This document shows positions 40,507 through 46,066 of a stretch of DNA of 46,066 nt, piece after piece. Origin of the DNA: Parcubacteria group bacterium Gr01-1014_2 (lineage in GTDB: Bacteria; Patescibacteriota; Minisyncoccia; 2-02-FULL-40-12); contig VMGG01000001.1 in assembly GCA_007376425.1 (NCBI GenBank), positions 1 to 46,066 of the forward strand, in the 5' to 3' direction. The notes beneath the pieces are model-generated. The model was not told where the DNA came from and made no database searches. It worked only from the letters and a program-made list of their open reading frames with translations. The number at the start of each line of letters is the position of its first letter. The first letter of the stretch is position 1. Position numbers and translations under genes: made by a program.

Positions 40507-40511
40507 AGACT

Positions 40512-40584
40512 GGGGATGTAGCTCAATTGGTAGAGCAGTCGCCTTATACGCGAAAGCGTGGAGGTTCGAGCCCTCCCATCCCCA
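40512..40584 (+). tRNA. tRNA with anticodon UAU (Ile, AUA-reading)
   Basis: It reads GGGGATG TA GCTC AATTGGTA GAGC A GTCGC CTTATAC GCGAA AGCGT GGAGG TTCGAGC CCTCC CATCCCC A. Confidence 0.8.
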
Positions 40585-40586
40585 TT

Positions 40587-40658
40587 GGGCAGTTAGTTCA
40601 GTGGCAGAACGCTTTCTCGACACGAAAGAGGCCGCAGGTCCGATTCCTGCACTGCCCA
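40587..40658 (+). tRNA. tRNA-Val (anticodon GAC)
   Basis: It reads GGGCAGT TA GTTC AGTGGCA GAAC G CTTTC TCGACAC GAAAG AGGCC GCAGG TCCGATT CCTGC ACTGCCC A. The anticodon loop has C rather than U at position 33. Confidence 0.8.
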
Positions 40659-40671
40659 TTTGGGAAATAAT

Positions 40672-42504: not shown

Positions 42505-43367
42505 ACGACCATCCTATCCACGACGAAAAACTGAAAGAGCTGGAAGAAAAAGCGATGAAGGCCCGCGAGCTTACTATTGAAGAACTGGTTGAAGCTAAAT
42601 CGGGCCATACGGCCGGGCCGCTGGGCATGGCCGATATTTTCGTGGCTTTATATTTTCACGTTTTGAATCACGACCCTAAAAATCCGACATGGGAAGAAAG
42701 AGACCGGCTCATTTTATCCAACGGCCACATCTGCCCAATCCGCTATACAGTCATGGCCATGGCCGGGTATTTTCCGATAAAAGAGCTGAAAACATTGCGC
42801 AAACTCGGGACGCGGCTTCAGGGCCATCCTGAACGCGAGCGACTTCCGGGGATTGAAACAACTTCCGGGCCTTTAGGTTCTGGCCTTGGCCAAGCATCCG
42901 GCTACGCTTACGCCGCCAGAATGGATAAAAAACAATTCAGAGTTTATTGCATAATGTCTGACGGCGAACAGGAAGCCGGCAATACTTGGGAGTCAGCAAT
43001 GTTCGCTGGAAAATATAAATTAAGCAATTTAACGGCAATAATTGACCGAAACAACATCCAGATTGACGGCATGACCGAAGACATAATGCCCCTTGAGCCG
43101 CTTGAAGAAAAATACAAGGCCTTTAACTGGAACGTGATTAATGTTGACGGCCATAATATTAAGGAATTTGTCGATGCGGTTAACTTGGCTAAAGCCACCC
43201 TGGAAAAACCAACCGTGATAATCGCCCATACGATTCCGGGTAAAGGAGTGCCAGACATTGAAGGCGATTATCTCTGGCATGGTATTCCGCCAAAGCCGGA
43301 TGAAGCTAAACATTTTATAAACGACATCAGAACTCTTAAAGGAAAGATAAAAAGCGAACACGAGTAG
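42501..43367 (+). CDS. Transketolase, N-terminal (thiamine-diphosphate-binding) subunit
   Basis: [49 protein letters not shown] and [11 protein letters not shown] match the family. No C-terminal subunit gene follows. Confidence 0.9.
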
Positions 43368-43411
43368 GTTTCATTGCTAAAATTCAAAAAAAGTGTAAAA
43401 TAAAGCAGCTT

Positions 43412-43482
43412 GCCCGTGTAGCTTAGTGGCAAAGCAACGGTTTCGTAAACCGTGGACGGAGGTCCGATTCCTCCCATGGGCT
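43412..43482 (+). tRNA. tRNA-Thr (anticodon CGU)
   Basis: It reads GCCCGTG TA GCTT AGTGGCA AAGC A ACGGT TTCGTAA ACCGT GGAC GGAGG TCCGATT CCTCC CATGGGC T. Confidence 0.85.
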
Positions 43483-43497
43483 TTTAACAAAATATAA

Positions 43498-43568
43498 GCC
43501 GCGGTAACTTAATGGAAAAGTAGGTGCCTGAAGAGCATCAAAAGGCAGTTCGATTCTGCCCCGCGGCA
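43498..43568 (+). tRNA. tRNA-Phe (anticodon GAA)
   Basis: It reads GCCGCGG TA ACTT AATGGAAA AGTA G GTGCC TGAAGAG CATCA AAAG GCAGT..., with the anticodon loop CTGAAGA in the alternative register, T arm GGCAG TTCGATT CTGCC and acceptor CCGCGGC A. Confidence 0.8.
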
Positions 43569-43570
43569 TT

Positions 43571-43645
43571 GCGGGCGTCGTATAGTGGTTATTATGGGAT
43601 CTTGCCAAGATCCAGACGGCAGTTCGATTCTGCTCGCCCGCTCCA
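43571..43645 (+). tRNA. tRNA-Gly (anticodon GCC), CCA encoded
   Basis: The acceptor is GCGGGCG ... CGCCCGC T CCA, the anticodon arm is GGATC TTGCCAA GATCC and the T arm is GGCAG TTCGATT CTGCT. Confidence 0.9.
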
Positions 43646-43739
43646 CAATTAGAGATTCCGATTTTTGACCGACGAATCGGTGGGCGGCACGAAGTGCCGC
43701 CCATTGGTTTTGTGGGGGGAAATCCTCTCCGTTCGGCGC
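43641..43739. repeat. Left inverted repeat (IR-L), starting in the last 5 nt of tRNA-Gly and carrying a 20-nt insertion
   Basis: IR-L reads ctccacaattagagattccg [atttttgaccgacgaatcgg] tgggcggcacgaagtgccgcccattggttttgtggggggaaatcctctccgttcggcgc. Without the bracketed part it equals the reverse complement of 45285-45363. Confidence 0.9.
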
Positions 43740-45082
43740 TCAAGAGAAGAAGCGACTTTTATCCATTCTCTCATCGGTTCGAGCCAACCATTCTGCTTTT
43801 GTTCAAGGTTAGTCATTTGCTCTTCCAGCGACTTCTTTTCGCTCAATAACTTTGCTTTTTCTCCACGATATACTTCGCGGTCAATATCCTGCTCCAAATA
43901 GCCATCAAGAAGTCGCTGGAGCTTGGTGGCAATGACCTTGATTCTCTCTTGGCTTGTTTGAACAAAAGCAGAAACGGATTGGGCGGATTTTGATTTGTCT
44001 TTTTCCAATCTTGTGTTTAGTTTTTCCGCCCAATCCGTGGGCAAAGAAACTTTTTGAAGCAGAGAGGAGATTTGCTCGTCTAGCTTTTCTTGGCGAATAC
44101 AGGGTTCGGAACACTTCATCACTTTAGATTTTTTCGTGCAATGATAGTAAGTATAAAAATGTTGTGTGCCGTTTTTCTGGGTTTTCACCCTGTATTCGCC
44201 AGTTATCATCATTCCGCAAGTGCCGCAACGCAATAATCCGCAAAATACTTGCGGCTCTATTTTAGATTTATGTCGCGGCCTTCCTCTCTGCTTCAATACC
44301 TCTTGGACTTTATCAAAAAGTTTCTTTGAAATGATTGGCTCGTGCTTACCCTCGTATATTTCGCCTGCATAGCGAAATAGTCCAGTGTAGAAAGGGTTGG
44401 AGAGGATAAAAGTCGCTCTTGAGATGTGGATTCTCTTTCCGCTTCTTGAAACTAAATGGTGTTGCGCCAAAAATTCTCCAATATCTTCTAGCCGTTGATC
44501 GCCTTGCGCGTAGAGTTCAAAAGCCTTGCGAACAACCGGAGCTTGCTTTTTGTCCACGACAATAGATTTATTGCGCGAGTCGTTGATATATCCAACAGGC
44601 GCAAGAGATGGATACTCTCCTCGTCTCACTTTTTGGCGCAATCCTCTTTTGGTATTTTCGGAAAGAGAATCCACATAGTATTTGCTTTGCCCAAAAGCGA
44701 TGTTCAACATAAATTTTCCCTGCGGCGTTGGCTCAAACCAAAACTGCACAAATTTCAACGCTGCAAGTCCACCTGTATCTACAAGGTAAATTATTTTTCC
44801 ACCATCAACAGAATTGCGCGCTAATCTATCAGGATGCCAGGTCAAAATTCCGTTAGCTTCGCCACTCTCTATCCGATTAAGCATATCGTTGAAAATAGGA
44901 CGGCCCGGAATTTTGGCCGATTGCTTCTCTACTAACTCATCAACAATGTTGAGATTTTCTTGTTTGGCGTAGGCGCGCAATTCTGCGATCTGGTCCTCGA
45001 TGGAACGCACTTGTTTATCTTCCACATCGGTGGACTTGCGGGCATACAAAAAGAATTTTTGCGATGAGATAATTTTTTCCAT
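43649..45082 (-). CDS. Large serine recombinase (resolvase domain + recombinase domain + zinc ribbon + coiled coil)
   Basis: FFLYARKSTDVEDKQVRSIEDQ carries the catalytic Ser motif. GILTWHPDRLARN and CGLLRCGTCGMM...YYHCTKK...KCSEPC are also present. The start is taken at MEKIIS (45082); the track ORF extends to 45280 through IR-R-adjacent sequence. The last ~29 codons are encoded by IR-L. Confidence 0.85.
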   Translation of the reverse strand: MEKIISSQKFFLYARKSTDVEDKQVRSIEDQIAELRAYAKQENLNIVDELVEKQSAKIPGRPIFNDMLNRIESGEANGILTWHPDRLARNSVDGGKIIYLVDTGGLAALKFVQFWFEPTPQGKFMLNIAFGQSKYYVDSLSENTKRGLRQKVRRGEYPSLAPVGYINDSRNKSIVVDKKQAPVVRKAFELYAQGDQRLEDIGEFLAQHHLVSRSGKRIHISRATFILSNPFYTGLFRYAGEIYEGKHEPIISKKLFDKVQEVLKQRGRPRHKSKIEPQVFCGLLRCGTCGMMITGEYRVKTQKNGTQHFYTYYHCTKKSKVMKCSEPCIRQEKLDEQISSLLQKVSLPTDWAEKLNTRLEKDKSKSAQSVSAFVQTSQERIKVIATKLQRLLDGYLEQDIDREVYRGEKAKLLSEKKSLEEQMTNLEQKQNGWLEPMREWIKVASSLERRTERISPHKTNGRHFVPPTDSSVKNRNL

Positions 45083-45284
45083 AATGTTGAAAACTTTAAA
45101 GGCCGCCCCGGTTGTAACCAATCCAAGTTGCCTTGAACTGACCGAGACGGCCATCAAAAAAGACAACTTTGCGGGATTGGTTACATAGTCATTATAGCAA
45201 AAATTCTTTTTGTTGGGCAAATGCGAATACAAACCGCAAGGGATTTCGAACCTCGTCTTGGCCAACCGCGAGGCGCGCATCAGC

Positions 45285-45363
45285 GCGCCGAACGGAGAGG
45301 ATTTCCCCCCACAAAACCAATGGGCGGCACTTCGTGCCGCCCACGGAATCTCTAATTGTGGAG
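45285..45363. repeat. Right inverted repeat (IR-R), 79 nt
   Basis: IR-R reads gcgccgaacggagaggatttccccccacaaaaccaatgggcggcacttcgtgccgcccacggaatctctaattgtggag. It contains its own hairpin, gggcggcac-ttcg-tgccgccc. Confidence 0.9.
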
Positions 45364-45416
45364 TATCTTTACGACTGCGCTCGAACCTACTTTATCAAAA
45401 ATTCCTGACCAAAGGA

Positions 45417-45631
45417 AGCCGCCCCGCCGCCGCTCGCTAACACTCGCCACACCACAGAAAAGTTTTGCTTACGATTTCGGATTTTGCGCGCGCCCGATTT
45501 TTTCTTCTAAAAGGAAAACAAAACTTTTCTGTGGTGTTCTGCTCTCTACGAGCAGGGCGGCGGGGCTGGCCTCTTTCTGTATTCGCTCGGGCGCGGCGGA
45601 ATTCCCCCCACACCCCCCTTCCGCCGCGCCC
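45417..45631. other. GC-rich nested-hairpin region (candidate structured RNA or recombination site)
   Basis: The outer pairing is gccccgccgcc (45421-45431) / ggcggcggggc (45556-45566). The inner 18-bp perfect pairing is caccacagaaaagttttg (45450-45467) / caaaacttttctgtggtg (45519-45536). A second hairpin, gggcgcggcgga (45589-45600) / tccgccgcgccc (45620-45631), has a loop carrying ttccccccaca, an 11-mer also present in both IRs. Confidence 0.6.
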
Positions 45632-45724
45632 TCGCTTGAGCTGGCGAATTTTTTGGCGACGATCATATGCTAACTATAGTATGTAGAACCAAAGTTAGCA
45701 AGCGCATATACTATAGTTATCACC

Positions 45725-45931
45725 ATGAAAAAAGAAGTTTTAATCAAATTCGGTAAAAAAGTCCGTGATGAGCGGATGAAATTGGAGTTATCTCAAGAAG
45801 AATTGGCGTCCCGCGCGGGAGTACACCGAACTTATATTGGAATGATAGAACGAGCTGAAAAAAACATAACTCTAGAAAATATTGAAAAAATCGCCAAGGC
45901 ACTGGGGATAAAAATTTCAGATTGTTTCTAA
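45725..45931 (+). CDS. XRE-family helix-turn-helix transcriptional regulator (68 aa)
   Basis: LSQEELASRAGVHRTYIGMIERAEKNITLENIEKIAKALGI is a typical HTH_3 sequence. A 12-bp inverted repeat, taactatagtat (45671-45682) / atactatagtta (45708-45719), lies just upstream. Confidence 0.85.
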   Translation: MKKEVLIKFGKKVRDERMKLELSQEELASRAGVHRTYIGMIERAEKNITLENIEKIAKALGIKISDCF

Positions 45932-45937
45932 TTTTAT

Positions 45938-46066
45938 ATGAAATATAATCTTACAAAAAAGGACTTCCAAACCGCTTTTGAATTTGCCGTCAAATACCAT
46001 CTTGATCCGACAAAATCCGGGACCACAAGAACTGCAGGCTCAGCTCGTAGCTTAGGCGATGTGCTC
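45938..46066 (+). CDS. Hypothetical protein, 3'-partial at the window edge
   Basis: The ATG lies 7 nt after the XRE stop, and the frame is open to the end of the window (MKYNLTKKDFQTAFEFAVKYHLDPTKSGTTRTAGSARSLGDVL). No family is recognised. Confidence 0.5.
   Translation, partial: MKYNLTKKDFQTAFEFAVKYHLDPTKSGTTRTAGSARSLGDVL

Follow-up and report, generated by a model that had tools for sequence, protein, structure and literature searches.

The first 46,066 nucleotides (nt) of contig VMGG01000001.1 from Parcubacteria group bacterium Gr01-1014_2 (hereafter the window) carry near their right end a gene for a large serine recombinase (LSR) bracketed by two inverted repeats, IR-L and IR-R, of which IR-L begins inside the 3' end of a gene for tRNA-Gly(GCC). 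What kind of element does this arrangement represent? Integration at a tRNA gene is expected to leave direct repeats, not inverted ones, and the original prediction, made from the sequence of the window, considered either an invertible segment of the Hin/Gin type or a unit similar to an insertion sequence (IS) that uses a serine recombinase. We propose an answer that retains a part of each of these ideas. According to our interpretation, to which we assign a probability of about 0.6, the region from 43641 to about 45680 and beyond is a decayed modular LSR element that targets the 3' ends of tRNA and tmRNA genes in Patescibacteria/Candidate Phyla Radiation (CPR), and whose attachment site is mirrored. 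We refer to the parts of that site as psi, core and B; the inverted repeats, to judge from their sequences, would be internal duplications of it. The coordinates of all features are given in Table 1.

The bracket, its tRNA targets and its mobility

The alignment of IR-L with the reverse complement of IR-R confirms the predicted 79-nt perfect inverted repeats around the recombinase gene: it comprises 20 + 59 identical positions and a single gap of 20 nt, at 43661-43680. Either half of the repeat occurs exactly twice in the 46-kb window and not at all in 100 shuffled sequences. Both ARAGORN and Rfam place the end of tRNA-Gly at 43645, in agreement with the claim that the repeat starts with the 3' end of this gene; its last five nucleotides (C72, T73 and CCA) are the left copy of the core. 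Only two of the nine tRNA genes of the window encode CCA, hence the element probably provided that of tRNA-Gly. The hairpin GGGCGGCAC/GTGCCGCCC noted inside each repeat is indeed present in both arms. The copy scored as terminator-like in our scan is that of IR-R (minus strand, 45344-45320), the one in IR-L being identical by symmetry, and in each arm the hairpin faces inward. From its sequence, the copy located right after the tRNA looks like an intrinsic terminator pointing into the element; in relatives the same stretch codes for ..QNQWAALRAAH...

The gene has rightly been called a large serine recombinase. The N-terminal resolvase catalytic domain (PF00239, E = 1.7e-22), with the catalytic-serine motif YxRxS found after the start codon as YARKS in LYARKSTD, is followed on its C-terminal side by the Recombinase domain (PF07508, E = 1.8e-15) and the Zn_ribbon_recom zinc ribbon (PF13408, E = 4.8e-9). 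A relative, L144 (L numbers denote related loci), matches in the PDB the C-terminal domain of the A118 integrase (4kis/6dnw, E = 1e-10) and resolvase catalytic domains (3g13, 3guv). A charged heptad-like stretch recognized by eye in the zinc-ribbon region (..LEKDKSKSAQ..KLQRLLDGYLEQDIDRE..KKSLEEQ..) is a candidate for the LSR coiled coil. Translation probably starts at 45082 (MEKIISSQ..), not at 45280.

The window holds one member of a large and very abundant family from ultra-small groundwater bacteria. A scan of one genome per species yielded 80 loci with relatives at 49-93% identity, nearly all of them in metagenome-assembled genomes (MAGs) of Patescibacteria/CPR and many at contig ends; altogether, about 100 related loci with the bracket architecture are available, again nearly all from Patescibacteria/CPR. 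In the protein database, at least 7983 of 8000 scored candidates are relatives at E <= 1e-30, and among the 120 best clusters listed all names given by the source are generic. The nearest LSRs of phages and plasmids do not exceed 29% identity, which is confined to residues 1-400. We found no description of equivalent elements in the literature, and the family is apparently undescribed.

In nearly every relative with enough flanking sequence, the LSR gene is enclosed by inverted repeats that measure 58-174 nt (113-174 nt in most cases) and whose arms are 84-100% (mostly 97-100%) identical to each other. Since the mean identity of arms is 98.9% within a locus versus 56% between loci, the arms of one locus evolve in concert. 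The bracket is also present in the most distant clade (49-56% identity), where the upstream arm is located 0.9-3.3 kb before the LSR start and the bracket additionally encloses cargo and an XRE gene. One arm shares its outer 5-8 nt with N72-N73-CCA of a tRNA gene. In 69 of 104 loci, a tRNA gene convergent with the LSR gene is located no more than 450 nt from its 3' end, compared with five of 104 that have a tRNA or tmRNA gene on the LSR 5' side; most of the remaining loci run off the contig. The targets span about 30 tRNA anticodon species and include the tmRNA gene in L037 (3294-3690), where the LSR faces psi. The core covaries with the target, in that its bases on the psi side match N72/N73 of the tRNA used (CTCCA, CACCA, GCCCCA, TACCA, AGCCA etc.).

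The family is also mobile. Recombinases more than 90% identical occur in differently labelled MAGs, the hosts represent many phylum-level lineages, and some genomes contain several copies (two in MGKV01, three in CAVVFV01). In four groundwater and soil sequencing runs, the region 43620-45680 is covered at 10-1000x the depth of its flanks by thousands of variant unitigs. The element breaks assemblies, contigs ending at the outer ends of the arms. Taken together, both the mobility of the element and its targeting of tRNA ends are well supported. Furthermore, modules about 91% identical in nucleotide sequence lie in opposite orientations relative to the tRNA in L013 as compared with L012 and L018; both orientations of the LSR module exist across the family, and thus inversion, or integration in either orientation, takes place.

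Psi and the two ends of the recombinase

Outside the arm that does not touch the tRNA there is, in nearly all loci of all clades, a conserved sequence that we call psi; read towards the core, it ends with TCAGGAATTTTTGATAAAGTAGGTTCGAGCGCAGTCGTAAAGATA followed by CTCCA. On the minus strand psi mimics the 3' end of a tRNA gene, with the T-loop-like motif GGTTCGA 22 nt from the core. We considered whether psi could be a pseudo-tRNA gene and rejected this possibility: its T-stem cannot pair, ARAGORN and Rfam are silent, and its conservation is explained by a coding signature. On the plus strand, psi of the window encodes a spare C-terminus of the LSR, YLYDCARTYFIKNS, with the stop codon at 45406-45408. 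In 154 distinct copies of psi, ..TTTATCAAAAAT is followed by a Ser codon whose third base is free (TCC 64, TCG 38, TCT 18, TCA 3), and a stop codon follows it immediately in 143 copies (TGA 93, TAA 45, TAG 5). Because synonymous TCN codons are followed by a stop in 143/154 copies, psi is, as judged from its codons, the translated C-terminus of the LSR (..ARTYFIKNS and stop).

The LSR reading frame is open through arm and core into the antisense strand of the tRNA gene in 25 of 25 loci, and the tail ..DSNLFxKKVAAKEIFGSNLxL..QNQWAALRAAH..ESLILE is kept down to the most distant, 49%-identity clade. LSR genes that face psi end inside it or just past it: the protein of L144 ends with ..RTYFIKNS*, the stop of L037 is within psi, and that of L103 lies further on. 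In the 120 best protein clusters, 86 tails are encoded by antisense tRNA and about 17 by psi, the latter including conservative variants such as ..IRTFFERN; counted by copies, about 85% face the tRNA and about 15% face psi, and four samples independently yielded an assembly of the same psi-facing form. The attachment site B-core-psi thus lies, in all these sequences, within the 3' end of the LSR gene, and therefore the last ~15 residues of the enzyme depend on the partner that the gene faces.

Each junction can be read as an arm with a T-loop motif (tRNA or psi), the 5-nt core N72-N73-CCA and the B arm. In every locus the motif of psi is 4 nt further from the core than the T-loop of the tRNA (22/18, 21/17 or 20/16 nt). 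In the A118 integrase, the attB motif for the zinc-ribbon domain lies 5 bp closer to the centre than that of attP (PMC3783163), and by this analogy psi looks like a half-site of the attP type and the tRNA like one of the attB type. A third T-loop-like motif, GGCTCGAACC, which encodes the conserved FGSNL, is found at the inner ends of the arms (L004, 4838-4934; the relic at ~45246-45284 in the window), so that the LSR 3' side displays three such motifs: GGCTCGAACC, GCTCGAACC in psi (encoding ARTY) and the real T-loop of the tRNA.

The copy in the window is decayed. Compared with L004 and L008, it has suffered a 100-nt deletion, which removed the codons ..DSNLFxKKVAAxxxFGSNLxLxxRxxR.. together with the inner third of IR-L and shifted the frame by +1. 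As had been noticed, the reading frame extends about 29 codons into IR-L, up to the stop at 43649-43651 on the minus strand, where IR-L codes for the recombinase tail out of frame; these codons are a read-through. The 20 nt that the original prediction took for an insertion in IR-L are in fact a deletion in IR-R, between 45343 and 45344: relatives have them in both arms, and in run X1, the best-matching one, the psi-adjacent arm possesses them at a depth of 67x. The spare tail is consequently out of frame too, and the LSR of the window (477 aa, versus 505-572 aa in the related loci examined) was probably crippled by the two deletions together. Its ancestral repeat measured about 138 nt, of which the inner part is kept only beside IR-R (about 45246-45284) and is unpaired there because the 100-nt deletion removed its partner. 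The exact deletion junctions of the window are uncovered in X1, which carries undeleted and +20 forms.

A proposed mirrored attachment site and its alternatives

The inverted bracket is only one part of a larger structure. In the clade of the window, psi and 100-300 nt of GC-rich hairpins constitute an arm of a second inverted pair, IR-A, which encloses 1-5.4 kb of variable genes and adjoins the first bracket, the core being common to both (e.g. 1343-1645/3492-3794 and 3789-3935/5384-5530 in L019). IR-A pairs were found in L011, L019, L022, L037, L027 and in ten metagenome loci. The layout in relatives can be written as tRNA-core-B-LSR-B'-core'-psi'-cargo-psi-core-trailer, whose cores at the two ends are repeated directly. 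The junctions at these ends, namely tRNA-core-B and psi-core-trailer with a direct core, were identified in L133, L154, L120 and L129; in the window the far junction is off the window. The premise that tRNA integration leaves direct repeats continues to apply, as the whole composite element of the relatives has direct copies of the 5-nt core on its two sides. At the far ends the sequence reads psi-C(94%)-T/A(95%)-C(89%)-C(64%)-A(76%) and is random thereafter, hence the crossover likely falls within N72-N73-C74.

We propose that the attachment site of the element is psi-core-B and that the LSR recombines it, presumably by way of a circular intermediate, with tRNA-core-trailer, exchanging strands within N72-N73-C74. 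Integration would produce tRNA-core-B (43620-43739 in the window) and, beyond the cargo and off the window, psi-core-trailer; the tRNA gene would receive from the element an encoded CCA and a terminator hairpin. The LSR reading frame would pass through B and the core to end either in psi (..ARTYFIKNS, stop) or in the antisense tRNA, with variable tails. The inverted repeats would correspond to a second, inverted copy of the site (B'-core'-psi', 45285-45408), situated between the LSR and the cargo modules. Recombination between the two copies, site-specific or RecA-mediated, would keep them identical and could also flip the LSR module, switching between the native and the tRNA-fused tail. Such a mirrored site would account for the inverted repeats, for the concerted evolution of the arms and for the two orientations, and on the strength of these sequence comparisons inversion of the LSR module is plausible.

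Several observations weigh against this scenario. Neither an excised circle, nor an empty site, nor an inversion polymorphism was encountered. There are no circular contigs among 209 loci, and all-against-all BLAST of 204 loci revealed 0 pairs with the same site in both orientations; the Logan unitigs (X1, X2, X16) are built with k=31, which is shorter than the arms, so orientation is not linkable in them. The pair attP x attL is not a substrate of canonical LSRs (PMC3783163), hence inversion driven by the LSR would be atypical, and conservative recombination alone cannot explain the origin of the inverted spare site. The offset between the psi and tRNA motifs is 4 bp and that of the A118 integrase 5 bp. 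The codon-position entropy of the B arm displays only a weak excess at third positions, and part of its conservation may therefore act at the DNA level. Finally, in the distant clade a second psi was not seen within the available flanks.

It is tempting to go further and regard the LSR as self-editing. Integration would swap its last ~15 residues (..YLYDxARTYFIKNS) for sequence from the antisense tRNA, inversion would restore them, and the exchange of tails would serve as a switch of directionality or activity. We consider this extension doubtful, albeit worth stating. If it were true, the element could switch directionality with no dedicated factor, LSR and cargo modules could be traded as cassettes by means of the two nested pairs of repeats, and the LSR would recognize the universally conserved T-loop/acceptor end of tRNA genes.

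One alternative retains the LSR as an enzyme that only integrates and excises, leaving it to homologous recombination of the host between identical arms of 100-170 nt to maintain the inverted duplication and to flip it; the swap of tails would then have no function. The near-identity of arms within loci against 56% between them is indeed a signature of gene conversion, derivatives that lack the LSR are perfect palindromes, as expected of hairpin or repeat processing, and the above-mentioned restriction of canonical LSRs speaks for it as well. Against it, the inverted spare site is conserved family-wide, down to 49% protein identity, and the tail encoded by psi is under coding constraint, which argues that the duplicated site is used and not just tolerated. 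We therefore find this explanation unlikely.

We likewise judge it improbable that the bracket is a true IS, in which IR-LSR-IR, the long repeats being its transposon ends, moves by cut-and-paste and preferentially lands where a tRNA borders on an already existing psi/hairpin repeat. Its repeats are terminal, in the clade of the window they hold the LSR alone, contigs break at their outer ends, multiple copies per genome occur, and psi-bearing cargo units without any recombinase exist. The part of the original prediction that envisaged an IS-like unit was correct insofar as the element is mobile (about 30 anticodon species, tmRNA and the 10-1000x depth). However, it is not a free-standing IR-LSR-IR, because psi, outside IR-R, encodes an alternative C-terminus and a second repeat pair brackets the cargo. 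Psi codes for the C-terminus and stop of the LSR and hence belongs to the same gene, the unit was never seen without psi on one side, and the bracket of the distant clade also holds XRE and cargo genes. The native 3' end of the gene thus lies outside the bracket, and there is no target-site duplication, in disagreement with a classical IS. A conservative 2-bp crossover cannot leave an inverted 5-nt core on both sides; for the same reason we rejected a simple insertion of IR-LSR-IR into a tRNA/psi junction, as no 2-nt crossover yields inverted 5-nt cores on both sides.

A resident phase switch of the Hin/Gin type, in which 43740-45284 would flip in place to control neighbouring genes without being mobile, appears very improbable. 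The recombinase gene does lie within the inverted segment, like hin, each arm has an inward terminator-like hairpin, and both orientations of the LSR module occur across the family. However, the enzyme is large: an LSR with recombinase and zinc-ribbon domains (477 aa in the window, longer in relatives) and not an invertase of ~190 aa with a C-terminal helix-turn-helix (HTH), and its repeats of 58-174 nt contrast with sites of ~26 bp. The same architecture recurs at some 30 anticodon species and tmRNA in many phylum-level lineages, with recombinases >90% identical in differently labelled MAGs, and neither an outward promoter nor an adjacent gene occupies a consistent position in which it could be switched. 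An assembly artefact, by which the repeats or junctions would be mis-joins of a multi-copy repeat, could be suspected from the unequal flanks in X1 (~47x on the left, 3-5x on the right) and from the uncovered deletion junctions, but it can practically be dismissed, as the architecture is present in ~100 loci from independent assemblers, including the single-contig chromosomes OY970216.1 and OY970382.1, and the tRNA-core-B junction of the window is covered by a 131-nt unitig at 51x.

Known systems, cargo and features of the window

With phage LSRs (A118/LI, phiC31, Bxb1) the family shares the resolvase catalytic, recombinase and zinc-ribbon domains, as well as two protein-bound arms around a short core, with the motif further from the centre in the arm that belongs to the element (cf. 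PMC3783163). It differs from them by its low sequence identity (at most 29%, within residues 1-400), by targeting many tRNA 3' ends, by having its site inside the LSR gene and a second, inverted copy of it inside the element, and by the lack of phage genes or an identified directionality factor. Islander islands and tycheposons are similar in that they are cargo elements at the 3' part of tRNA or tmRNA genes, whose end is restored by the element. However, they use tyrosine integrases (tyrosine recombinases in 910 of 937 tycheposons), whereas the window family has a serine recombinase; a displaced tRNA fragment forms a direct repeat at the far end of Islanders, whereas here only a core of 2-5 nt is repeated and the bracket is inverted. 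By both properties the window element falls outside the definition of Islanders.

Recombination that alters or splits the reading frame of its own enzyme is known for integrases that span attP: integration of Mx8 changes the C-terminus of IntP (Tojo 1996, as cited in PMC4383910), and SSV integrases have the site within their own reading frame (PMC7253208). Unlike the family described here, these are tyrosine recombinases that keep no spare inverted gene end, while the serine recombinase of the window family might regain its native tail by inversion. Hin, Gin and Cin resemble it by a serine recombinase gene between inverted sites with a short asymmetric core (Hin), but they are small invertases with a C-terminal HTH and ~26-bp sites, they need Fis and an enhancer, and they are fixed switches. 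IS607 TnpA and TnpX/TndX (Tn4451/Tn5397) are serine recombinases that move a discrete element, presumably via a circle; in contrast to the LSR family, none of them targets tRNA ends. In the outline given in PMC6188088, the IS607 family has no terminal inverted repeats and little target specificity, and TnpA is a small recombinase whose DNA-binding domain is N-terminal; measured against that outline, the LSR architecture and the long repeats set the window element apart.

According to PMC4383910, tRNA genes are not among the targets of serine integrases. Contrary to this statement, a very large clade of LSRs targets them systematically. Mobile elements of CPR bacteria are poorly known, and the elements described here, with their metabolic, cell-wall, redox and restriction-modification cargo, may be a main route of gene exchange among them. 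The combination of an attachment site in the LSR gene, a mirrored spare copy and two C-termini offers a possible means of directionality control. If the LSR reads the conserved T-arm/acceptor end, nearly every genome would offer it natural landing sites, which would be relevant to genome engineering based on integrases. In addition, the breaks of CPR assemblies beside tRNA genes are accounted for by these long perfect repeats.

Table 1. Features of the recombinase region, in coordinates of the window
Feature	Position	Strand	Basis
tRNA-Gly(GCC), target gene	43571..43645	+	ARAGORN, Rfam
IR-L = B arm: core CTCCA + 15 nt + 20-nt segment (43661-43680) + 59 nt	43641..43739	+	
LSR gene, 477 aa, C-terminus damaged	43649..45082	-	Pfam, PDB, YARKS motif
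Hairpin GGGCGGCAC-GAAG-GTGCCGCCC then TTGGTTTTGTG	43681..43714	+	Mirror of scored IR-R copy
100-nt deletion scar	43739..43740		DNA alignment with L004, L008; protein alignment
Leader (5' untranslated region), ~105 nt, conserved	45083..45190	-	L004, L008 alignment
Promoter-like TTGCCC-N18-TATAAT, extended TG, inside bracket, towards LSR gene	45191..45220	-	Scan
Relic of inner part of ancestral ~138-nt arm, contains GAGGTTCGAA, now unpaired	45246..45284		L004/L008 alignment, arm lengths of relatives
IR-R = B' arm; ends with inverted core TGGAG (45359-45363)	45285..45363	+	
Psi TATCTTTACGACTGCGCTCGAACCTACTTTATCAAAAATTCCTGA, 45 nt	45364..45408	+	Conserved outside arm in nearly all loci
GC-rich hairpin module, with psi one IR-A arm; partner off window	45409..45680		Depth, relatives
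First cargo gene, XRE-type HTH	45725..45931	+	Pfam HTH_3

The cargo of the family includes thioredoxin, glutamate dehydrogenase, thioredoxin reductase, Ddl with a VanX-like protein, pieces of ribonucleotide reductase, dTMP kinase, radical-SAM enzymes, restriction-modification genes and a 1245-aa surface protein. The same cargo, 99.7% identical over 4.7 kb, is located in L154 and L170 at two tRNA-Thr genes that are 88% identical and have different flanks; one copy is accompanied by the LSR and the other by only a mini-palindrome that consists of the outermost 21 nt of both arms. In other forms without the LSR there are palindromes, either of ~100 nt with the GC hairpin at their centre or similar to terminators. 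Some of these forms show a simple arrangement with cores in direct repeat, tRNA-CTCCA/psi'..cargo..psi/CTCA-trailer (L129, L094). In L117, L135, L137 and L140 the tRNA 3' end is fused to TCGAAC.. of psi, or to a few bases of the B arm and then psi; these odd junctions may be recombination scars.

In the window itself, the XRE gene is, by comparison with related sequences, likely to control a restriction-modification cassette, which extends beyond the window: in L081-L083 the same XRE gene is followed by a 349-aa reading frame, a C5-methylase fusion and a Vsr endonuclease. Of the hairpin module, these contigs have just the final ~30 nt in common with the window. In the search for an empty site, L081-L083 have a different left neighbour next to the same XRE gene, and the exact transketolase protein of the window is without a record match. 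The last ~30 nt of the module (CCTCGCTTGRGCTGGCGAATTTTTTGGCG) precede the cassette in L081 and L082 with no LSR adjacent. The elevated depth, 10-100x that of the flank, persists to about 45677, and within the module it reaches 6046 in X1 against 47 in the left flank. Owing to the difference in X1 between the left (43000-43570) and right (45757-46066) flanks, the right end of the contig may stem from a rarer variant or have been joined across the repeat.

Upstream of the LSR gene, the promoter-like site is the best promoter match of the region (10/12 positions) and is kept in L004 and L008. In other variants of the community the leader is swapped for 12 nt (joints 45061>45191). At E <= 1, Rfam returned only the three tRNAs and one chance match, and none for the leader or the hairpins; the leader of ~105 nt may act as a regulatory RNA or be a small inserted segment. 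In the distant clade (L058, L070, L076, L077), the bracket contains, directly upstream of the LSR gene and divergent from it, a small XRE-type HTH gene; reminiscent of the XRE gene located just beyond the bracket of the window, of L027 and of L039, it may regulate the LSR. The 525-aa protein of L081-L083 has Pfam matches to LexA_DNA_bind, Peptidase_S24 and C5 DNA_methylase, an unusual LexA-methylase fusion. Elsewhere in the window, tRNA-Ile and tRNA-Val (40511-40659) are joined without a spacer, at 40585/40586.

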